Under the pieces are notes generated by a model. The model did not search any database, was not told where the DNA came from, and saw nothing but the letters and a program-made list of their open reading frames with translations. Below are positions 18,654-29,682 of a stretch of 64,000 bases of DNA, one piece after another. The number at the start of each line of letters is the position of its first letter. The first letter of the stretch is position 1. Source of the stretch: Candidatus Latescibacterota bacterium (lineage in GTDB: Bacteria > Latescibacterota > CBDEFO01); the NCBI GenBank assembly GCA_965248755.1, contig OZ252149.1, forward strand, positions 1,056,001 through 1,120,000, given 5' to 3'. Made by a program: the position numbers and the translations under genes.

Positions 18654-19532
18654 TTAGCGAAGCGCTTCGCAGAGTTCTTCAAAGGTGTCCGCTACGAATA
18701 CTCCCGCCTCACGCAGGGCCTTCGCCTTGCCTCGAACGGAGCCGCGTCCTCCTTCGACAATCACTGCGGCATGTCCGAACCGCATGCCTTCCATATCATC
18801 CACGAAACGGCCGGACAAAAATGCGATGATGTGCAGTCGACTCGGCTTCTTCCTTAGCCGCTCTGCCAGCTCCTCCTCCGCGGAGCCGCCGGGTTCCCCA
18901 TAGATAACGACGGAGTCCGTGCGCGGATCGTCTTCGAGCAGTTCGATAAGATCTCTGAAATCGGAACCGACAATCGAGTCCCCACCAACACCGATCGCTA
19001 TGCTCTGGCCGATGCCGCGACTCGATAAGTAGCTGGCGATCTCCGTAGTCATGCCCCCGCTACGGGAGAGGATGGCTACACGACCCGGAGTGAACGAACG
19101 GCGTGTATTGTCGATGCGCCCTCCGATGGTGCCCAGTTTGACGATGTTCGGACGGATGAGCCCAAGCGTATTGGGGCCGATGACTCTGCAGCCCGCGTCC
19201 CCTGCCGCGACCAGTAATCTGCTCGTGTCCAGGCGCGGTACCCGTTCGGTCATGATCATACAGAGCCGAATACCGGCTGAGAGGGTTTCTAATGCTGCGT
19301 CCAGCACGGCGGGAGCCGGCACGGAGATGATGCTGACGGTCGGATGCCACCGATCGACGGCCTCCGCAACCGTATCGTACACAGGCACCCCATGAACGCT
19401 CTGTCCGCCCTTTCCGGGCGTTACACCGGCCACAATTCTGCTCCCGTAGGCCAGCGAGTCCTCCACCATCCCCCTCGCCTCTCTGCCTGTGATTCCCTGA
19501 ACGACAATTCCCGCCTGTGGGTCAAGCAACAT
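18654..19532 (-). CDS. Succinate/malate-CoA ligase alpha subunit-like
   Basis: VQGITG, GVTPGKGG, GPNTLG, SRSGG, FGHAA phospho-His. Confidence 0.88.
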   Translation of the reverse strand: MLLDPQAGIVVQGITGREARGMVEDSLAYGSRIVAGVTPGKGGQSVHGVPVYDTVAEAVDRWHPTVSIISVPAPAVLDAALETLSAGIRLCMIMTERVPRLDTSRLLVAAGDAGCRVIGPNTLGLIRPNIVKLGTIGGRIDNTRRSFTPGRVAILSRSGGMTTEIASYLSSRGIGQSIAIGVGGDSIVGSDFRDLIELLEDDPRTDSVVIYGEPGGSAEEELAERLRKKPSRLHIIAFLSGRFVDDMEGMRFGHAAVIVEGGRGSVRGKAKALREAGVFVADTFEELCEALR

Positions 19533-20721
19533 GATCCATATTTCCTTCCACGGCCAATCTGGCGGCCTCATTCAACGATACGTCGCGCCCCTGCGCCTTG
19601 ATCCCAGCCGTGGCCATGATCTCCTGCGCCTCCTGTTCCCACGAGCCGGGCACGCGAAAGACACTGATGGTATCGGAAGGGTTTCTCCCCGCCCTCTCAA
19701 TTCCCATGAGAACCCCGCGGGCCATGACATCTGAACGAGTGTTGTTGACCACATTCATAATAACGGCCATCCGCTTAACTTCTGGTTTGGATAACAAAAG
19801 CGCACTTAAAGCGGCCACCTTCTCCTCGGTCGGGTTTCCCCCCACCTCACAGTAGTTGGCGGGTCTCCCCCCATAGAGCTTGATCGCGTCGAAAACGGTC
19901 AGACTGGCGCCGCCCCCACCGATAAGCAGGGCCATGTCGCCGTCAAATTCCACAAGGCGGCCTGCGACACCTCGGTGATCCATTGCATCGATGCGCTGTG
20001 CCTCAAGCTCCAAAGGCGTTGGAGGGCGACCCGTTGCGCTCTGCGTTAGATCACCTAACGGTTCTAATCTTTTATTCTGCCGATATGCAGCGTCGTCCTC
20101 AATTTCCACGTGCGCATCGAGGCCCACCGAAGCGCCATTTTCGGCAATAACCAGAGGATTAATCTCCATAGTGACCCCATCGCATGCCAGGAAGGCTTCG
20201 GACAGCGTTGCGAGGACCTCTCCCAACCGGACGAGCGTTTTCCCCCTCAGGCCGAGTTGGGACGCCATCCCTCGTCCTTCATACGGCGCAAGCCCCCTCC
20301 ACGGATGAAACGAACGGCGTACAAGACGATCTGTCGGGGAGGATTCGACATCGACCCCGCCGCTGGGACTCAACAGGGCAAGGGGCAGCTTTTCTACCGT
20401 GTCCCAGGCGATGCCGACATAGAACTCCTGATTAAAATGCAGCTTGGGTTCAATCGAAACCCTCCCCACCCTGGTGCCGCGCAATTCCATTCCAAGCAGC
20501 TCCCCGGCGCCGGCTTCCACTTCGTCCAAGGTCTCCGCGAACTTCACCGCCCCGGCTTTACCGCGTCCGCCGAAAGGCACCTGCGCTTTGAGAACGGCGG
20601 GCAGCCCGACGCCCTCCACGGACGCCCGCACCTCCTGAAGGGATTCAATCACCTTCTGTTCGGTGAAGACCAGACCGAAGCTTGAGAGCAGTTTCCTGCT
20701 TTGATGTTCGAGCAGTCTCAT
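19522..20721 (-). CDS. Succinate/malate-CoA ligase beta subunit-like (ATP-grasp)
   Basis: MRLLEHQ, KAQVPFGGRGKAG, EINPL, GGGGAS, ANYCEVGGNP. Confidence 0.88.
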   Translation of the reverse strand: MRLLEHQSRKLLSSFGLVFTEQKVIESLQEVRASVEGVGLPAVLKAQVPFGGRGKAGAVKFAETLDEVEAGAGELLGMELRGTRVGRVSIEPKLHFNQEFYVGIAWDTVEKLPLALLSPSGGVDVESSPTDRLVRRSFHPWRGLAPYEGRGMASQLGLRGKTLVRLGEVLATLSEAFLACDGVTMEINPLVIAENGASVGLDAHVEIEDDAAYRQNKRLEPLGDLTQSATGRPPTPLELEAQRIDAMDHRGVAGRLVEFDGDMALLIGGGGASLTVFDAIKLYGGRPANYCEVGGNPTEEKVAALSALLLSKPEVKRMAVIMNVVNNTRSDVMARGVLMGIERAGRNPSDTISVFRVPGSWEQEAQEIMATAGIKAQGRDVSLNEAARLAVEGNMDHVA

Positions 20722-21587
20722 CTCATCATCTCGTGCAATCTGAGAACTCGTCGGGCCCGCTCCACGATCGGCAGATCGACCATCTGGCCTTCCACCACGA
20801 GCGCCCCTTGTCCTGCGGCCTCCGCCTTTCCGAAGGCCTCCACCACACGTTGGGCGTATTCCACCTCATCGGCAGTCGGAGAGAAGACATCGTGAACGGC
20901 CTCGATCTGGCTCGGGTGAATCAAAGCTTTGCCCGTAAAGCCGAGCTGGCGGGCCCGGCGTGCATCCGCAAGGAGCCCGTCCGGATTCTGGATATTCGCG
21001 TAGATTCTGTCTACAACCTGAAGTCGCTGGCTGACCGCTGCGACGACGAGGGCCGAGCGGGCGTAGACCATATCTGTGGCCTCACCATCCCGGAGGGCAA
21101 AAATCCCCAGATCCAGGGCGAAATCTTCCGCTCCAAACATCAGCCCGACCAGTCGCGGACAGGAGGCCGCGATAGCGGGCGCCTGAATGAGCCCGCGGGA
21201 GCTTTCAATTGTAGCCAGCAGTCGAACGCTTCCAGGTTGGAGTCCGGACCTGGATTCCTGTTCTCTCAGAGTCGCGTCGACTGCAATCACGTCTTCGGGA
21301 CATTCCACCTTGGACAATGTCAATCCATCCAACCCGGGTCTAACGGCGGTCTGCAGATCCGCATCCGTCTCAGCGCTCCCGGCGGCGTGGATGCGGACAT
21401 AGCGGGACGGCCCGCCTGGAGGACGCCCAAGGGCCGCAGCCACCAGATCCCGGGCGGCATCCTTCTCGGCGGGAGGCACACCATCCTCCAGATCAAAGAT
21501 CGCGACATCCAGCTTCAGGGCGAGAGCCTTATCGATCATCCTACTCCGATGCCCGGGCACGAACATCCAAGACCGCATAATCTGCAT
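20718..21587 (-). CDS. CitE/malyl-CoA-lyase-like CoA-ester lyase
   Basis: RSWMFVPG, FDLEDGV, FGAEDF, GKALIHPSQ, GQMVDLP. Confidence 0.88.
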   Translation of the reverse strand: MQIMRSWMFVPGHRSRMIDKALALKLDVAIFDLEDGVPPAEKDAARDLVAAALGRPPGGPSRYVRIHAAGSAETDADLQTAVRPGLDGLTLSKVECPEDVIAVDATLREQESRSGLQPGSVRLLATIESSRGLIQAPAIAASCPRLVGLMFGAEDFALDLGIFALRDGEATDMVYARSALVVAAVSQRLQVVDRIYANIQNPDGLLADARRARQLGFTGKALIHPSQIEAVHDVFSPTADEVEYAQRVVEAFGKAEAAGQGALVVEGQMVDLPIVERARRVLRLHEMMR

Positions 21588-21606
21588 ATATACCCACTTT
21601 CCTTTT

Positions 21607-22254
21607 TTATCTGCGCGCGGAACCCGCCTGTTGCAGCGATGCACCGTAGCGTACCAGCCGGACACCAATCCACAACCCCATCAGAGCGCCGGCCCCTATC
21701 AGGTATCCCAGCCATACCGGCACCAAACGGTCGATGGGAATCACCTTCGGCAGGAGCAACTGCGTAGCCATCTGGCGCCACGCTTCCATAGTAGGCCCTT
21801 CGCCCCCTGGGCCAAGGGTTGCCGTCAGCATCCGCTCCGTCGACCACATAGATCCGTAGTATACCAAGATACATATGCCCGGCAGGAAAGCTAACAACCA
21901 GAATGCAGCCCTCAAGCCGCTGTTCTTACGGAGAGAATAGAAGAATAGCACCGACGGAACGATCCCGAATAGGACTACGGCTCGTCCAAATCCCGAAAAG
22001 AAGGTGATGAGCAGCAACACACATAGACAGAGCCCGATGAATATCCACCCGTTCAGAACATATCTAGCTGATGTGATGTAGCAATGCCCTGTTTTCCGCT
22101 TTTTCTCGATAAATTCGACTATCCGCTCTTCGAGGGGTGTGCCCGGCTTTGGAGTTTCCCGCGAAATCTCGTAACCCAGGATTTCTCTTTCACGGGCCTT
22201 CTCGTGACGCTTTCTGGTGTTCTCCCTGTCCATATACACACCCAGACGTGGCAA
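21607..22254 (-). CDS. Hypothetical membrane protein
   Basis: 215-aa ORF with about four hydrophobic segments, co-oriented with the lyase/ligase trio. Confidence 0.5.
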   Translation of the reverse strand: MPRLGVYMDRENTRKRHEKAREREILGYEISRETPKPGTPLEERIVEFIEKKRKTGHCYITSARYVLNGWIFIGLCLCVLLLITFFSGFGRAVVLFGIVPSVLFFYSLRKNSGLRAAFWLLAFLPGICILVYYGSMWSTERMLTATLGPGGEGPTMEAWRQMATQLLLPKVIPIDRLVPVWLGYLIGAGALMGLWIGVRLVRYGASLQQAGSARR

Positions 22255-22538: not shown

Positions 22539-22934
22539 GCCAAACGAGTGTGCAAAACAGAAGAGGTCGTCAATGAGCCTTGCGGTAGGGGAGCCTGATC
22601 AGCGACAGCTCAGGGGAGGAAAACCCTCCGAGACGATATCGTCTTACCGCAATCAGGATATATCGCTTCATTACTATTTTGATTTTATTAAGTAATTTGA
22701 CAAAACTTTTCGGACATGCTAAGTCGGTGGAAAGTTGAGATCGTTCCCGCTTCGCGACTTCTTCTTGTGGGGAACAGCCAGGCACTCTCAATTGGATTCC
22801 TCTCCCTGTATGTTGGCTACCTTTTGGATCTCTACAATTTTGTGGGGACTGTTTTGACCTGATACATCGTAAGAGTCCAAAGATCACAGGAGCTCAGATG
22901 ATCACTATTTTGGAGTTAACATTGGAAAATGTTC

Positions 22935-22991
22935 TTGACATTGCTAAAACTTTTTCTTATATTCTATATACCCTCAGGGGGTGGGGGTATA
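22935..22991 (+). promoter_or_regulatory. Sigma70 promoter plus CsoR/RcnR-type operator
   Basis: TTGACA-17-TATATT, then TATACCCtcagggggtgGGGGTATA (C/G tracts flanked by an AT-rich inverted repeat). Confidence 0.8.
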
Positions 22992-23007
22992 AACGAAAGG
23001 AAACAAG

Positions 23008-23304
23008 ATGATCGAAGAAATCAAGCTAATCTCACAAGATCGCAAGGACCAGACAATAAGACGCCTTAAATCTATTGAAGGCCAGATGAGAGGATTACAG
23101 GGCATGATAGAAAAGGAGCGCCCTTGCGTGGAGGTACTGACCCAAATAGCAGCGGCAGAGGAGGGTCTAAAGCAGGTGGGAAAGATTATGATGAGAAACT
23201 ACCTGGAAAACTGTGTGACCAATTCCATCAGGTCGCAAGATGGCCAAGAGGCTGATAGAATATACGACGAGTTGATGGACATTATCTACAAGTTTGCGAG
23301 GTAA
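23008..23304 (+). CDS. CsoR/RcnR-family metal- or sulfur-sensing repressor
   Basis: RRLKSIEGQMRGLQGMIE, RPCVEVLTQ, NYLENCV. Confidence 0.9.
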   Translation: MIEEIKLISQDRKDQTIRRLKSIEGQMRGLQGMIEKERPCVEVLTQIAAAEEGLKQVGKIMMRNYLENCVTNSIRSQDGQEADRIYDELMDIIYKFAR

Positions 23305-23351
23305 TAAAATGTCAAAGGGTCTTAGGAGTAATCTTTAGGAAGGAGGTATAT

Positions 23352-24299
23352 ATGAAAAGATACATCATTTTATCATCCATTCTGTGCTCTGTTGTTCTTC
23401 ATATGGTTTATCCAAAGGGGACATTGGCTCAGGGGCCACCGATCAACACCGAGACAGCGTTCGTGGTCGGTCTTGAGGGCGCCGCGCTCAGGACACTCGT
23501 TAAAACGACGAGGAAATCGAAGCTTTTAAAGGGCACCACGAAAGTCTCTGATCCTTCAGATCGACAAGTACAAGTTGTGGCTGTTCCTATTATAATTCCC
23601 TACGAATTGATTCCAAACAGAATAGTGGTCGCCGCAGCGATTCCCTATCTTCACAAGGAACTGAGTCTGACTCAGGACGGGATAAGACGTGCTCTGTCTG
23701 ACAACGGCTTTGGGGATCTTTCTCTCTTATTCAAATATCAACTCCTTCAATGGGACGCTCATCGAAAGACGACCAGAATTACGTTTAAGGGAGGGCTGAA
23801 ACTTCCCACAGGCGACCACGATGAGACGGATGAGTTGGGCGAACTTCTCCGCAGGGGGCTACAATTGGGAACGGGCTCCCTAGATTACTCAGCCGGGCTT
23901 ATCTTAACTCACAGCGTAGGCAGACTCGGGATCAACACAGACGCCATCTACACATTCAAAAGGGAGGCGGACAAGTACAGATTTGGAGACTCTTTAAATT
24001 ACGATCTTGCGGTCGGATACAGGATCTATCCTTCGGTCTATGAGACTTATCCATCGCCTTATGCCACTCTTTATTTAGAGGTAAATGGTCAGTTCAAACG
24101 AAGGGATGAGGAAAATAGAGGGACAGTCGAGGACTCAGGCGGACACATTTTGTCTCTCTCACCTGGGATACAATACATCCCTTTGAGCACATTAATCATC
24201 GAGGCATCGATACAGATTCCTGTGCTCCAGGACCTGAACGGAACTCAACTCGGGACGGACTTTGCCTTTGTAAGCGGGATTCGATGGCTGATCTTTTAG
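23352..24299 (+). CDS. Outer-membrane beta-barrel (MetA/phenol-pathway 'transporter' family)
   Basis: Signal peptide, GFGDLSL, KLPTG, LGTGS, C-terminal Phe. Confidence 0.75.
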   Translation: MKRYIILSSILCSVVLHMVYPKGTLAQGPPINTETAFVVGLEGAALRTLVKTTRKSKLLKGTTKVSDPSDRQVQVVAVPIIIPYELIPNRIVVAAAIPYLHKELSLTQDGIRRALSDNGFGDLSLLFKYQLLQWDAHRKTTRITFKGGLKLPTGDHDETDELGELLRRGLQLGTGSLDYSAGLILTHSVGRLGINTDAIYTFKREADKYRFGDSLNYDLAVGYRIYPSVYETYPSPYATLYLEVNGQFKRRDEENRGTVEDSGGHILSLSPGIQYIPLSTLIIEASIQIPVLQDLNGTQLGTDFAFVSGIRWLIF

Positions 24300-24347
24300 T
24301 CCGAAACTCAATATTAACCTGCAATGTTGAAAGGAGGTCGTTTCAAG

Positions 24348-24893
24348 ATGACGGTAAAAAGAATTCTTTCTTTGCTGCTCTCAGTTACTATTGTGTCGGC
24401 TGTACCTGTGGAGAGTCCGGCTCAGATAGAAGAGGCTACAGTTAAGGTGGACGGTCTTTCGTGCCCTTTTTGCGCCTACGGCTTGGAGAAGAAGCTCAAG
24501 AAAGTAGAAGGAGTTGAGAAGTTAGAGATCAAAGTGGATCAGGGAGTAGCCAAACTGACTGTAAAGGAGAAAAAGAACCTCTCCATCGAAGATGTAAAGA
24601 AGGCTGTGGTGAACGGCGGCTTTACCCCAAGAGAAATCGCGATTACGGTTAAAGGCCGTATGTCCGAGCATAATGGCAGAACAGTTTTAAAGTTTGCAAA
24701 GAACGCGAATGTCTTTCTGATCGCTCAGAACGAGCAGTTGAAGAAGGTCAAGGATGCGCTCAAAGGGCAGGACAAGCTCCTTCGGATAACTGGCACGCTC
24801 TCCAAGGAAAAAGTCGAAGGCCATGGGGAGCACCCTTATGTCCTGTCTATTGAACAGTTCAAGATGCTGTCCTCTACTACCAAGGTGAATTAG
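24348..24893 (+). CDS. Exported HMA-domain (MerP/CopZ-like) protein
   Basis: Signal peptide, GLSCPFC. Confidence 0.85.
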   Translation: MTVKRILSLLLSVTIVSAVPVESPAQIEEATVKVDGLSCPFCAYGLEKKLKKVEGVEKLEIKVDQGVAKLTVKEKKNLSIEDVKKAVVNGGFTPREIAITVKGRMSEHNGRTVLKFAKNANVFLIAQNEQLKKVKDALKGQDKLLRITGTLSKEKVEGHGEHPYVLSIEQFKMLSSTTKVN

Positions 24894-24894
24894 A

Positions 24895-25713
24895 ATGATG
24901 AAGGCAAAGGAATCAAGCCTGACAGCTATCCTTGCGGCACTGCTGGTGGTCTGGACGGTTTCACCCGTTCTGGCGCACGAGCCCCTGTTTGGGGTCGGGC
25001 CACACACCATCTATCAGAACGGCCTGGGGCTGGAGATGGAGCTCGAAGTCGAAGATGAGGAGGTATCCGTTCACAACGAGGCCATCTATGGGGTCACGCC
25101 CGACCTGGCTGTGACCCTGGTGGCCCCCTGGGTTCGGAAGGAGGAGGGGAATAGGTCCATCTCTGGACTGGGGGACATCAGCCTGCGGGGGAAGTGGCGC
25201 TTCTTCCGGCGGGACGGAGCGGGTCGGCAGGACGCCCTCGCCCTGGTCTTCGGTGCAAAGTTTCCCACCGGAGACGAGCAGGCGGAGATGCCTCTGGGGA
25301 CCGGATCGACTGACTTTTTCGGTGGGATCGCCGCAGGCCGGGAGTCGCGCCGGTGGTACTACTTCGGCGACCTGCGCTACCGGGCCAACACAGAGGCGGA
25401 CGGTCTGAGGCAAGGGGACATCTTCTTCTATGACGTGGCCTGGGGAGTGAGACCGGTGCGGGCGGGTTATGAGCAACCTGACCTGGTGCTCCTGGTGGAG
25501 ACCAATGGAAAGATCGCGGGGAAGGCCGAACAGGATGGCGTCACAAACCCCAACACAGGGGGACATGTGCTCTCAGTCTCGCCCGGATTTCTCTTCAGCA
25601 TCCGGAACGTGATGCTCAAAGGGGGGATCAATGTCCCTGTCCTCTGGGATCTGAACGGAGTACAGGAGGACCCAGAAACCGAGATTCTGTTCGGTGTGGA
25701 GTTTCATGTCTAG
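24895..25713 (+). CDS. Second outer-membrane beta-barrel, same family
   Basis: Signal peptide ending LA-HEP, GLGDISL, KFPTG, LGTGS. Confidence 0.75.
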   Translation: MMKAKESSLTAILAALLVVWTVSPVLAHEPLFGVGPHTIYQNGLGLEMELEVEDEEVSVHNEAIYGVTPDLAVTLVAPWVRKEEGNRSISGLGDISLRGKWRFFRRDGAGRQDALALVFGAKFPTGDEQAEMPLGTGSTDFFGGIAAGRESRRWYYFGDLRYRANTEADGLRQGDIFFYDVAWGVRPVRAGYEQPDLVLLVETNGKIAGKAEQDGVTNPNTGGHVLSVSPGFLFSIRNVMLKGGINVPVLWDLNGVQEDPETEILFGVEFHV

Positions 25714-25729
25714 TAGAGGAGGCAGAACC

Positions 25730-26514
25730 ATGCGAAAGATCGTGTTTATCTTGATAGTAGTCGCCCTGATGGCCGGGCTGAGTGTGCCGGTGCAGGCAGG
25801 TGTGAAATCTCTGACACTGAAGGTGGATGGACTTGCCTGTCCCTTCTGCGCTTACGGCATGGAGAAGAAGCTGAAGAAGGTAGAAGGGGTTGAGAAGCTT
25901 GAGATCGATCTCGACGGAGGGACGGTGACTCTCAAAATGAAGGCGCGCGTCCGTCTGACAGCCGCCTCAGAGGGAAAAGAAAAGGCCCCCGCAGGTCTTG
26001 TGGCACAGGTGCAGAAAGCCGTAACAGAAGGTGGCTTCACGCTACGAGAGTTGACGGTAACGGTGGAAGGGCAGGTGGTAGCCCAGGAAGGAGTATTGCG
26101 TCTACGGCTGTCCGGGACAGAAGAGATCCTTGTCCTAAAGGAAAATGGGAAGGTAGCTGATCTGAAGAAGGCGGTCTCAAACGGGTCAGTGACTTTAATC
26201 GGCACTCTGCAGACGGAGGACCCGATGCTTACCTTATCCGTCGAACAAGTCAGTGAAATGTCCGTTATGGAAGGCGAAGTTCATCGCCTGAAGGTCTCAG
26301 GCATGGTCTGCACCGGGTGCGCGGATGCGATCAAGGCTGCCCTGGAGAGGATCAGCTGGGTGCAGCAGCAGAGGTCGATCTGGAGCAGGGGCTGGCCCAG
26401 GTTACGGCCGCGGCAGGCAGGGTCTCTGCAGAGCAGCTCGTCGAGGCCGTCAACGGGATTGCGATGAGTGGGATGCCTGAAGGGACGTTCCAGGCATCGG
26501 TGGTGGAGGAGTGA
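25730..26514 (+). CDS. Exported two-HMA-domain protein with apparent 1-nt frameshift near 26360
   Basis: GLACPFC and GMVCTGC; the HMA fold continues in another frame (AAAEVDLEQGLAQV...) to 26514. Confidence 0.75.
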
Positions 26515-26560
26515 AGAGTTAGAAAGCTGTGATAAGAGAGAAAAAGAAGATATTAGAACG

Positions 26561-26839
26561 ATGAAGATAAAGTCATCGAGCCTGATGGCCCTTCTTGCGG
26601 CACTGTCCTGGTGTTGAATAGTGCCTGCGATCTTTGCCCTGCTCGGCTTAGCAGGGGTAGCTACTGCAAGGTTCCTTGCGATAAAGTTTTATCCTTTCTT
26701 GCTTACTCTGTCTGTCCTGCTTTTGGCAAGAGCGCACTATCTGGTGTACGTAAAGCGGCACGGGCACAGACTGAGCGTGCTTGTAGTATGGGTCTCCACC
26801 GCCTTGGTGATCGCCGTGTGGCTGCCAAGGATACTTTGA
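26561..26839 (+). CDS. MerT/MerF-like membrane protein, probable selenoprotein (C-U motif)
   Basis: MKIKSSSLMALLAALSWC*IVPAIFALLG...; in-frame TGA 26615-17 falls at the second Cys of the MerT CC-x-x-P motif; downstream hairpin ccctgct-cggctt-agcaggg. Confidence 0.75.
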
Positions 26840-26852
26840 CAAGGGAGAGATT

Positions 26853-27794
26853 ATGAGACCAGCAAGTTTGTTCCTGATAATATTGATCCTTTCGACAGGC
26901 CATCTTTACTGTTCCAAAGAGGACAAACTGCAATTCGTCTTCGTCCAGAAATGGGGAACAGAAGGAGAAATGCCAGGGCAGTTCCAGGGCCCTATAGGGA
27001 TCGCTGTTGACGATGTCGGAAGTGTCTATGTCTCCGACAGTGGGAACAATCGCATTCAAAAGTTTGACAGAAAGGGCAATGTCTTAGCCGAGTGGGGAAA
27101 AGATGGTGATGCCCTAGGAGAGCTTGCGCGTCCCATGCATATTGAAATGAAGGATAGTAAGCTCTATGTGGCAGAATATTTCAACGACAGGATACAGGTT
27201 TTTGATCCTTCTGGGAGTTTCATTGGGGCTATCGGTTGGCACCAAAAGGAGGGCGGCTATTTTGACGCCCCGGCGGGCGTATCTGTGGACAGCCAGGGGA
27301 ATATCTATGTAGCTGATTTCTACAACCACAGGATAGAAAAGTTTGATAGAAATGGCGAATTCGTACGTCAATGGGGAGATCACGGAGAAGGCGACGGACA
27401 ATTTAATTATCCCACCGATGTAGCTGTCGGTTCTGACGGTACTGTCTACGTGGCCGACGCCTACAATCATAGGATTGTCAAGTTCACGCGTGAAGGGCAA
27501 CTTCTTACGAGCTGGGGAGGTTACGGAACAGATGAAGGCAGGTTCAACGTGTCCACCGGTATAGGCTTAGACGGAAAAGATAGGATCTACGTAGCGGATT
27601 TTTACAATCACCGCATCCAGGTCTTTGGCAGCGATGGACACTTCCTTCTCCAGTGGGGAAGGCAGGGGAACGGCGACGGCAGGTTCGAACGTCCGACTGA
27701 CGTGGCAACAGACAAGGACGAAAACGTCTACGTAACAGATTGGGGGAATAATCGTATTCAGAAGTTCCGAGTCGTCAAGCAGGTGACAGAGTGA
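26853..27794 (+). CDS. Exported NHL-repeat six-bladed beta-propeller
   Basis: Six F-x-x-P-x-G/D-x-A...YVAD-x-x-NHRIQ-like repeats; signal peptide. Confidence 0.9.
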   Translation: MRPASLFLIILILSTGHLYCSKEDKLQFVFVQKWGTEGEMPGQFQGPIGIAVDDVGSVYVSDSGNNRIQKFDRKGNVLAEWGKDGDALGELARPMHIEMKDSKLYVAEYFNDRIQVFDPSGSFIGAIGWHQKEGGYFDAPAGVSVDSQGNIYVADFYNHRIEKFDRNGEFVRQWGDHGEGDGQFNYPTDVAVGSDGTVYVADAYNHRIVKFTREGQLLTSWGGYGTDEGRFNVSTGIGLDGKDRIYVADFYNHRIQVFGSDGHFLLQWGRQGNGDGRFERPTDVATDKDENVYVTDWGNNRIQKFRVVKQVTE

Positions 27795-27935
27795 AACCAC
27801 GTCGCCTACCGCCTACGGCGCGGCTCGACATCGGAACTCCGCGGGCGGGGCTTCAAACCTCACCCTTGGAAGATGCCCTCTTCCTCCAGTGGTATTCATC
27901 CGCCACGCACGAGTGGCGGTGTTCTGCCATAATCT
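27791..27935. repeat. IS200/IS605- or REP-like palindromic remnant
   Basis: gtgaaaccacgtcgcctacc...ggcggggcttc and ttcatccgccacgcacgagtggcggtgttc hairpins. Confidence 0.4.
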
Positions 27936-27998
27936 TTATAAAGAAAGATTGAGAGTCAATTACGGCGGTTCAAAGGATACTGCTCCGACAAAAAAGAC

Positions 27999-28027
27999 TT
28001 GACAGTATTCTGGATTTCTTGTATATT
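27999..28027 (+). promoter_or_regulatory. Sigma70 promoter cut off from downstream DNA by IS1380 copy 2
   Basis: TTGACA-17-TATATT, 30 bp before the IS end. Confidence 0.6.
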
Positions 28028-28056
28028 GTCTGTAGTATTTGTAGAAGTATGTATAT

Positions 28057-29682
28057 CCGACATTCCCCATATCACATTCATGAGGGATTATATTTCGATA
28101 CATTCTTGTTTCTGAATTAATATTACCACTTTTACATTTTTCAACAAGTACTTTTTTCAATTAAAATAGTATTTTCCTCTGAATTATCACTTTCTTTGTG
28201 TTTAAATCCTCCAATTAGAGACACCTCTCCATCGACTCACAAAAAAATGTGGCAGTTTAAACAGAATAACATCGCAATCGTTCAATCCGGGATAATATTT
28301 CGGCAAATAACCTCTTGTCTATCCCAACCTCAGCCATTTGAAACGTAATATATCCGCTGTGTCTGACAATCTTCGCTCCGATTTTGATAAATTTCACGAG
28401 GAGGCTGCGTAGTGACCAGTGTTTGATTTTCTTCGGAAGAACAAAACGTCGCAGGAAGTTGCCCAAGTTGTAAGCCAGAACAAACAGCCAGAGCCTCACC
28501 TGATTGGAGACGAAACGCTTGCATGAGAGTCGGGTCCAGTTCAGAGCATACTTGCCCTCCTTAATCCACTGCTCAGCTCTGCCACGGCCATTGTAGAAGT
28601 GTACCACGCCTTCTGGCTTGGCGCTCATGTTGGTCACGATAAATCCCACTCTTGGGAATAACTCCCCTTGGTGCCATTCAACCTTGGCGACCACTCGCCT
28701 CGATTGATCCCAACTGGCCGCTTTATATTGAAATTCATATAACGATACAATCGGTTTCCTCGGCGGTCGTCCAACTGGCCGAGTCAGCAGGTATCGTATC
28801 TTTTCATAGAGTATCTCATTTGCGGGAAGCCGAATGGCATACAAATAGCCGTTTCCCTCCAGATAATCATAAATCTCAGGCTTTGCGAATGCAGCATCGC
28901 CTCGAAAGTATTTCCTATTCTTCTTGCTCTCGTATCTCTTGACGATCGGTTCCAGAACTTCCTTCCAACGATCAGCACTGTGAACATTACCAGAGCGAAG
29001 TAGGACTCCTTCACAATCCCCGAACTGATTGAAGCAGAACACTGGATGAAAACAGGTACATCCGAAATGACCGTTGTAAGCTGATCCTTCCTGCTGGCCA
29101 TGTACCGGACTCTCCGAACTGTCCATGTCCAGAATGATTCGTTGATGCTGTGTTTTACTCATCGCTTTTTGAACCCACTTGCCATTGATATCTGACAAGT
29201 TTCTGAGATTGTCATGCTGAGTCAGTATATCAGTTTCAAAACGTCCTATCGTGTTGGAGCTGGCAGCTTGCCTGCCTTTGTCCTTCTTTCCGGTAATCGC
29301 TCGCATGACGGGATCAACGGATAATCGCTCGGCGTCATTTACATCTTCATATCCTGCAAGACGGCTGTATATCGATTGACGCAGGAGAGTAGATATATCA
29401 TGTTGGATATTACGGCCTGTGCGTTTATCGGTAAAAACCGCTGATACCGAATCAAATAATCCCAGTGCGTAATCAAGGTCACGATACGCAAGAAGTCCAC
29501 CGTTTGATGTCACCTTTGCACCATGAAATTCAAGCTTTATTCCTCCATCAAAACCTACTTTGATTCTTTCACCCTCTGGATGATCAATATTTATCCGCCA
29601 TTTATGAGTCTTATTTATTGTAATATAACATGTTCTGGCGACTTTGACAACCATTTTTCGGGTCTAATATGGCGAATGGGGG
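28057..29682 (-). mobile_element. IS1380-family insertion sequence, copy 2 (1626 bp)
   Basis: Reverse complement of copy 1; TATAT on both flanks. Confidence 0.95.
28257..29654 (-). CDS. IS1380-family transposase
   Basis: Protein identical to 448..1845 except one M/I change. Confidence 0.95.
   Translation of the reverse strand: MVVKVARTCYITINKTHKWRINIDHPEGERIKVGFDGGIKLEFHGAKVTSNGGLLAYRDLDYALGLFDSVSAVFTDKRTGRNIQHDISTLLRQSIYSRLAGYEDVNDAERLSVDPVMRAITGKKDKGRQAASSNTIGRFETDILTQHDNLRNLSDINGKWVQKAMSKTQHQRIILDMDSSESPVHGQQEGSAYNGHFGCTCFHPVFCFNQFGDCEGVLLRSGNVHSADRWKEVLEPIVKRYESKKNRKYFRGDAAFAKPEIYDYLEGNGYLYAIRLPANEILYEKIRYLLTRPVGRPPRKPIVSLYEFQYKAASWDQSRRVVAKVEWHQGELFPRVGFIVTNMSAKPEGVVHFYNGRGRAEQWIKEGKYALNWTRLSCKRFVSNQVRLWLFVLAYNLGNFLRRFVLPKKIKHWSLRSLLVKFIKIGAKIVRHSGYITFQMAEVGIDKRLFAEILSRIERLRCYSV

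Follow-up and report, generated by a model that had tools for sequence, protein, structure and literature searches.

Organization of the operon

We analyzed a 64,000-nt stretch of contig OZ252149.1 from a Candidatus Latescibacterota genome (hereafter, the window; the source genome, G000, is one contig and 98% complete), and in it an operon of seven genes, all located on the + strand between positions 23008 and 27794, downstream of a promoter match and an inverted repeat. An initial annotation had described it as a CsoR-controlled soft-metal relay across the envelope. The gene list and its single strand held: Pfam scans assigned the genes to the csoR (PF02583), PF13557 barrel (two copies), heavy-metal-associated (HMA; PF00403), and NHL families, and the MerT-like gene had an NCBIfam match below cut-off. 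The proposed promoter and operator were recovered as well. The features are given below, with reference to a genome of the same genus (G001) and to contigs from two other studies (X4 and X5); contigs X1 and X3 come from one sample, possibly the source sample, and L numbers denote related loci.

22935..22963, + strand: sigma-70-like promoter (TTGACA-17-TATATT), 11/12 of the consensus; a consensus match only
22967..22991, no strand assigned: predicted CsoR operator, a C-tract/G-tract inverted repeat just 3′ of the −10 box, with 10-nt arms that are 90% complementary
23008..23304, + strand: CsoR/RcnR-family repressor with an x-C-Y-C pattern (C40, Y65, C69) and no Cu-binding His (PF02583, E 1e-23)
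23352..24299, + strand: type I PF13557/COG4313 barrel (barrel 1), mature start QGPPINT, core gene (Pfam; AlphaFold2 [AF2] pLDDT 94.4)
24348..24893, + strand: core gene, exported MerP-like HMA protein (HMA1; CPFC) whose C-terminal OB-like domain bears a His pair; signal peptide assigned by eye
24885..26546: strain-variable 1662-bp segment (barrel 2 and HMA2), absent from X4, X5, and G001; GC content, 58.5%
24895..25713, + strand: type II PF13557 barrel (barrel 2), mature start HEPxFGxGPHT, accessory (Pfam)
25730..26514, + strand: exported HMA-OB-HMA gene (HMA2; CPFC and CTGC), accessory, probably truncated product, with a frameshift near 26369 in the second HMA domain
26561..26839, + strand: MerT-like membrane protein of 92 aa with Cys-selenocysteine (Cys-Sec; TGT-TGA) at 18-19, predicted selenoprotein (NF033560, E 2.8e-13)
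26637..26656, + strand: predicted bacterial selenocysteine insertion sequence (SECIS) hairpin with a 7-bp stem and a CGG-starting loop, 3′ of the UGA; 90% of cells paired
26853..27794, + strand: six-bladed NHL beta-propeller, predicted lipoprotein (Cys20), core in most loci (PF01436)

The 24885-26546 segment stands out by its GC content (48.0% in the remainder of the operon), and G001 and the X4 and X5 contigs skip it, so that the shared operon is csoR-barrel-HMA-merT(Sec)-NHL. G000 and the X4/X5 contigs alike retain its core genes and the SECIS in intact form. Barrel 2 and HMA2 form a dispensable accessory that is partly broken: the exported double HMA, annotated as intact, is frameshifted within its second domain. 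The X1 and X3 contigs carry the same letters as the window across this break, with no gap, and the frameshift is therefore probably not an assembly slip; we disfavor assembly error as its cause, with the proviso that these contigs come from a single sample, maybe the source itself. X1 spans 22700-28081 with zero differences from the window. Intact three-domain HMA-OB-HMA relatives occur at L054, L081, and L089.

A barrel, an HMA carrier, and an NHL lipoprotein form the conserved unit

A genome scan with HMA1 confirmed at least 542 stretches, of which the best 80 were analyzed (all counted, including L032/L033 and L048/L049, which are the same contig in two bins, and several close kin). A barrel lay within 1.5 kb of the HMA gene in 73 of these loci, an NHL gene within 2.5 kb in 50, and both in 47; the 44 loci with at least 2.5 kb on each side yielded 41, 29, and 27, respectively. 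The conserved unit is the trio of a PF13557 barrel, an exported CxFC HMA protein with an OB-like tail, and an NHL lipoprotein. Titles of the trio loci cover more than a dozen phyla, and gene order varies among them; the nearest titled relative within this set, L018, is also a Ca. Latescibacterota (HMA 93% identical). This conserved neighborhood bears out the annotated idea of a regulated, envelope-spanning soft-metal module. A design built from two barrel-HMA modules does not fit: the core is one module plus the NHL gene, the two barrel types co-occur in 6/80 loci, and the second module is strain variable and broken. We found no description of the cassette in the literature searched, to which most subscription papers were external and which included queries combining mer operon, outer membrane, and NHL repeat, as well as PF13557 and metal; this agrees with the initial annotation, in which it was not recognized as a described system. 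Uncharacterized genes are known to sit inside mer operons (PMC3466566).

HMA1 has 913 relatives of similar length. C39, C42, H159, and H162 are invariant in the 51 that were aligned, and MerP (1OSD) was the best fold match of its model, OB-fold matches being weaker. It shares the invariant CxxC and the fold of MerP-type proteins, scores below the TIGR02052 cut-off, and bears the additional OB-like domain. This tail matched no consistent Pfam family across the 51 members, and an atlas search returned only leads below 0.9. In an exported HMA homologue beside a barrel (L180:8931-9185), in-frame stops occupy both Cys positions of the CxxC motif (UxxU if TGA).

In the NHL protein, the lipobox-position Cys occurs in 30/40 aligned sequences, and no other Cys is conserved in 30% or more; there are invariant tyrosines and no invariant metal ligand. 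A PAM-lyase-type metalloenzyme was considered and set aside in view of the lack of an invariant His or Cys. An atlas search with this protein retrieved generic NHL clusters.

Two subtypes of outer membrane barrel

Barrel 1, the only one folded, scored above the PF13557 cut-off, and its AF2 model has 12 strands by DSSP reading and a 17-residue non-strand, plug-like N terminus, i.e., the strand number and the N-terminal lumen segment of COG4313/PF13557 channels. Its best Foldseek matches, 4RL8 among them, were FapF and Pput2725 (TM about 0.72-0.75). Pput2725 is plugged by its N terminus and thought to pass hydrophobic molecules (PMC4493636). Whereas the known channels (Pput2725, TcpY, and SphA) and FapF handle hydrophobic organics or amyloid subunits, both subfamilies described here sit in metal-resistance operons, and each barrel type accompanies its own HMA protein. 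The annotated N-terminal His of mature barrel 2 was confirmed as the predicted start and is present in 17/17 aligned type II relatives, in which H10 (13/17) and a near-terminal His (15/17) are also conserved. On average the barrels contain fewer than one Cys, and neither Cys nor His is conserved in type I, which makes a ligand-lined ion pore unlikely for this type. Barrel 1 had zero matches among 72,556 plasmid records.

By analogy, PcoB/CopB with PcoA is likewise a small stand-alone outer membrane barrel of a metal-resistance operon with a periplasmic partner. PcoB, however, belongs to another family; the operon has no multicopper oxidase, and type I barrels lack a His/Met-rich N-terminal tail. 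No gene of the operon matched the PcoB family in Pfam or NCBIfam, and PcoB was not among the listed Foldseek matches of barrel 1. A third, distant barrel-like gene of G000 (G000:C1:1803311-1804585, − strand; 23% identity to barrel 1) is Met-rich near its N terminus and possibly copper related.

A His-less CsoR clade with atypical P1B ATPases

Among 21 aligned CsoR sequences, C40 and C69 are invariant and Y65 is present in at least 90%. The operon CsoR resembles both Cu(I)-CsoR and CstR in its PF02583 fold, the two Cys at positions X and Z, and the C/G-tract operator. It differs from them at position Y, which is Tyr instead of the His of CsoR (x-C-H-C) or the Asn wedge of CstR. Copper-sensing CsoRs need this His, CstRs lack it, and several clusters of the family network are uncharacterized (bioRxiv 10.1101/2021.07.25.453692). 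Sites resembling TACCCC..GGGGTA were found upstream of 22/76 same-clade CsoR genes versus 34/1600 random windows. No copA or copZ context exists here, for the operon contains no ATPase, and the two CPC-type P1B ATPases of G000 are encoded more than 600 kb away.

We surveyed the best 80 of 164 metagenome loci of this clade; Tyr at Y in 74/80 is partly circular, as one search pattern included it. Neighbors comprised P1B ATPases (32 loci), CcdA-like proteins (17), MerF-like proteins (11, some divergent), barrels (9), FAD oxidoreductases (9), and MerR (8); MerT-like genes also occur in the clade operons, and L140 and L155 repeat the parts of the window operon in different orders. GYPC replaces CPC in 20/21 near-full-length P1B ATPases of these loci. 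We found no description of YPC-motif P1B ATPases in the literature searched, although they may be discussed in print. As an obligatory partner of the cassette this ATPase was rejected, with close matches in 5/50 cassette genomes and none in G000.

Several further observations concern these loci. GYPC ATPases with FN for YN in the next helix occur at L107, L121-L123, L126, L132, L134, L139, L144, L147, L149, L158, L163, L168, L173, L180-L182, L184, and L186 and also at L035, L041, L042, and L092. An exported single-Cys protein with no Pfam match, which we take to be DsrE-like, recurs near the CsoR clade and the trio (L126:921-1514, L128, L161, L168, L062, and L078). At L041, L042, L057, L086, and L087, an extracytoplasmic function sigma/anti-sigma pair, labeled from sequence, lies upstream of the barrel or HMA genes in place of MerR or CsoR.

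Predicted Cys-Sec recoding of the MerT-like gene

The MerT-like open reading frame scored 50 bits against NF033560 (cut-off, 130), as expected for a distant subfamily, and carries the Cys pair of the first helix as CU. As annotated, it reads through an in-frame TGA placed after a Cys codon. The aligned codon is TGA in 10 related loci, one of them UU (TGA-TGA at the Cys pair of L040:9578-9850), and TGC in 3 genome loci and 5 metagenome loci. Three of the seven SECIS pairs are changed on both sides in 10 sequences (the window and nine others; L087 not included); the covariation score was reached by 0/500 shuffles and the pair count by 26/500, with the structure drawn from the window's own fold and the aligned sequences being both related and coding. 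G000 has tRNA-Sec, selA, and selB, and selA was detected in 8/10 TGA genomes versus 0/3 TGC genomes, all of which may be incomplete. Cys-Sec recoding of this gene is well supported by these predictions.

CU-motif MerT selenoproteins are already known (bioRxiv 10.1101/2022.07.06.499078; PMC9312934) and share the Cys-Sec motif with the 92-aa protein. The latter differs in having no match to NF045683 (MerT/CopZ selenoprotein), and the accessible portions of the two reports contain no link to a barrel-HMA-NHL cassette. Elsewhere in G000, selB lies ∼1.2 kb from a CopA-like ATPase gene on the same strand (G000:C1:1705951-1711543).

The cassette is associated with mercury resistance genes, usually with no MerA detected

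MerR-family genes were found in 28/80 trio loci. Of their 30 proteins, 20 have three Cys (18/80 loci), and 16 reproduce the exact Cys82/117/126 spacing of Tn501 MerR (PMC5027573). The operon itself has no three-Cys MerR; elsewhere in G000 there are five MerR_1 matches, and a comparison with four neighbor MerRs gave only one weak hit (33%). Seven of 10 tested oxidoreductase neighbors, in seven loci, passed the MerA cut-off (TIGR02053), and one of three tested passed that for MerB. Two other "MerA-like" neighbors were dropped as glutathione-reductase-like (L034) and AhpF/TrxR-like (L056), and one at L090 is cut by the contig end. Flavoproteins of the glutathione-reductase-like kind, with CALRGC or CAVRGC and lacking a Cys pair at the C terminus, are repeatedly found together with YHS-domain genes close to these metal operons, at L034:3043-4398, L130, L158, L163, L180, and L181 and fell below the MerA cut-off where tested. 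MerC-like genes occur in 5/80 trio loci, and one HMA relative is fused to MerC; P1B ATPases occur in 11/80, 6/10 full-length ones having no YPC motif. The annotated absence of merA, merR, and a P-type ATPase is therefore correct for the operon and wrong for the system, whose relatives sit with MerR, MerA, MerB, MerC, and P1B ATPases.

MerA was then sought in 50 cassette genomes (24 further selected loci are outside this count). It scored above cut-off in 16/50, versus 2/151 Latescibacterota genomes, in which fewer candidates were scored per genome; MerA has been reported in 7.75% of bacteria (PMC8261052). The barrel model matched 8/151 genomes of the phylum, including both with MerA (hypergeometric, 0.0025, an overstated value given that kin are not independent and one genome helped to build the model). 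No MerA was detected in 34/50 cassette genomes, among them the chromosome-level records L020, L028, and L054; L020 has a merR-merT-merP-barrel-HMA-merT(Sec) arrangement and no MerA in its genome. The enrichment of MerR and MerA together with these 34 genomes ties the cassette to mercury resistance, usually with no MerA detected. The check elsewhere in the genome that the initial annotation proposed was negative: G000 had no MerA over cut-off, its best matches being dihydrolipoamide dehydrogenase- and transhydrogenase-like proteins, and no HgcA match. No MerA over cut-off was found in G001. MerB had no match in G000; its profile control matched no genome, but tblastn with four neighbor MerBs was also negative.

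Compared with a Tn501/Tn21-type mer operon, the cassette is alike in its MerP-like exported CxxC HMA protein, in its MerT-like protein, whose first helix carries a Cys pair, and in that its relatives lie under three-Cys MerR regulators and beside merA and merB. It is unlike in the lack of MerA and MerB in G000, in the CsoR-family repressor that replaces MerR, and in having also an outer membrane barrel, a His-pair OB-like domain, and an NHL lipoprotein, which the available parts of PMC3466566 and PMC8261052 do not list with the mer genes. The operon is neither a mer operon (no MerA, no MerR) nor a Cu-CsoR/cop operon. G000 holds a second metal locus (G000:C1:3119937-3121434; L187:3937-5434) with a canonical x-C-H-C csoR, a merT-merP fusion-like gene, and a CopZ N-terminal-like Cys-rich gene, followed by an insertion sequence (IS); at the same site, G001 has a WYL regulator and an HMA-OB gene replacing the fusion.

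A model for metal clearance across the envelope and its alternatives

We propose, at slightly under an even chance, that this widespread cassette is induced by a mercury-like, thiol-loving ion and clears it outward across the envelope without mercuric reductase, as an envelope extension that would work in the manner of mer systems. The two-Cys CsoR without a His would sit on the adjacent operator and keep the promoter silent until the ion, by bridging the cysteines of the repressor, causes its release. Within the inner membrane, the ion would be captured by the Cys-Sec MerT-like protein and exchanged with the periplasm, where the MerP-like CxFC carrier and its His-pair OB-like domain may hold it, to judge from their conserved ligands and from MerP and CopZ. 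The barrel, predicted to be plugged and 12-stranded, would pass the ion across the outer membrane, probably as a neutral complex since type I barrels lack conserved Cys or His. The NHL lipoprotein might serve as a scaffold or binding partner, which is the weakest step of the model.

Three arguments favor the outward direction. First, the cassette lies under regulators that sense excess and occurs beside MerA, beside exporters, or on its own, three settings that only outward movement or trapping would fit equally. Second, 34/50 cassette genomes and G000 show no MerA, and Hg import without a reductase should harm the cell. Third, MerT-family proteins share operons with P1B exporters at L123 and L126. 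PcoB sets a precedent, by analogy, for metal efflux through a lone small outer membrane barrel (PMC12509749). A more specific and clearly more tentative version is reductase-independent Hg export, in which the barrel would be a dedicated outer membrane exit for Hg(II) complexes, supplied by the MerP-like carrier together with a Cys/Sec MerT-like protein or, alternatively, a YPC-motif P1B ATPase; the x-C-Y-C CsoR clade would be a new class of mercury sensor.

Several points weigh against mercury as the substrate or against its export. The two neighbor MerRs that were scanned scored best on TIGR02051, yet under cut-off and close to ZntR; 10/30 neighbor MerRs lack a Cys of the three; and three-Cys MerR-family proteins also include Cd/Pb/Zn sensors. 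Some trio loci sit with CPC copper ATPases, most MerA-negative genomes are incomplete bins, and kin are not independent. Pairwise distances of barrel, HMA, and NHL proteins are weakly correlated (Spearman 0.10-0.30, 29 loci, crude p-distances), a result that does not support strict coevolution of the trio and, together with the variable gene order, argues against a tight obligate complex and for parts that are shuffled rather than rigidly coinherited. Sec should bind Hg more tightly than the carrier cysteines, so that outward release may be uphill. Finally, characterized MerT and MerP import Hg(II) (PMC8261052), and COG4313 barrels are known as channels for the uptake of hydrophobic molecules (PMC4493636).

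These last two precedents underlie an inward route, as the initial annotation had it, by which barrel, HMA, and MerT-like proteins would import Hg(II) or organomercury toward cytoplasmic MerA/MerB, the reductase having been lost in G000 to leave an orphan operon. Enrichment of the cassette with MerA agrees with this, and the IS element adjoining the operon and the broken HMA2 suggest decay. Such a route fits poorly in a genome without MerA, and the enzyme is equally missing over cut-off from G001 and the 34 cassette genomes; in addition, the core genes and SECIS are intact in G000 and the X4/X5 contigs, and opening the outer membrane to a toxin would offer no obvious protection. We regard import as improbable, though it deserves weight. 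Sequestration is somewhat less probable again: HMA and Sec-MerT proteins would be induced to trap the ion with high affinity, in the periplasm and the inner membrane, respectively, while the barrel would only equilibrate it. A sink would function without MerA, the affinity of Sec for Hg is very high (bioRxiv 2022.07.06.499078), and UU (L040) and UxxU (L180) forms exist. On the other hand, sequestration leaves the barrel, the most constant partner (73/80 loci), unexplained, and genomes in which no selA was found have Cys forms in place of Sec.

A soft metal other than Hg, such as Cu(I), Ag(I), or Cd, is a doubtful substrate; the cassette would then be a CopA-CusF-like or Pco-like unit for periplasmic clearance. 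The P1B ATPases of trio loci, over half of the full-length ones without the YPC motif, the conserved His of type II barrels, and the His pair of the HMA protein would suit such metals. The His required by Cu sensors (bioRxiv 2021.07.25.453692) is, however, missing from the CsoR, the neighbor MerRs show the three-Cys pattern rather than the two of CueR, and MerT, MerC, MerF, MerB, and MerA are the companions of the cassette.

We consider a persulfide or selenium-species response through a CstR-like sensor very improbable: CstRs likewise have no Y-position His (bioRxiv 2021.07.25.453692) and HMA1 has weak TusA Pfam matches, but these are below cut-off and overlap the HMA fold, the recurrent CsoR-clade neighbors are P1B ATPases, MerF, CcdA-like, and MerR genes, and the Se/sulfane substrates entertained in the annotation find little support, with no rhodanese or persulfide-enzyme gene in the operon by Pfam and none labeled among the clusters in at least three trio loci or at least four of the 80 CsoR-clade loci (many clusters being unscanned by Pfam). 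Equally remote is a FapF-like secretion pore exporting the paired HMA protein or propeller to the surface as an outer metal trap, for although the polypeptide exporter FapF is the best sequence and fold match and each barrel type has its own HMA protein, the N-terminal segment of the barrel 1 model is free of helix and forms a short coil plug, as in Pput2725, and a folded cargo would be large for 12 strands.

Outward clearance of a mercury-like ion would address a gap in current models. The mer model has no outer membrane component and ends in MerA (PMC3466566, PMC8261052), and cells without MerA have been argued to need other ways to cope with Hg(II) (PMC8261052). The cassette, four small genes found with and without MerA, is a concrete candidate for one such way. 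It also suggests what might induce an uncharacterized CsoR clade and what YPC-motif P1B ATPases might transport, would give COG4313 barrels their first role with metals, and provides a membrane carrier in which Cys and Sec are naturally exchanged. The window locus contributes the connection to Sec-MerT, the CsoR clade without His and its YPC ATPases, and the distinction of two barrel subtypes. If true, the export route would add to bacterial Hg resistance a second architecture, present in many uncultured phyla and missed by merA surveys. Should the cassette instead prove a copper or orphan uptake unit, its value falls to the annotation of a recurrent accessory module.

Genes flanking the operon

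Directly after the operon, on the − strand at 28257-29654, lies a 465-aa transposase-like open reading frame, presumably IS1380-like, which is not at that site in G001. Genes upstream (18654-21668, − strand) are transcribed away from the operon and are common to G001; we take them to be succinyl-CoA-synthetase-like alpha and beta genes and a citrate-lyase-beta-like gene.

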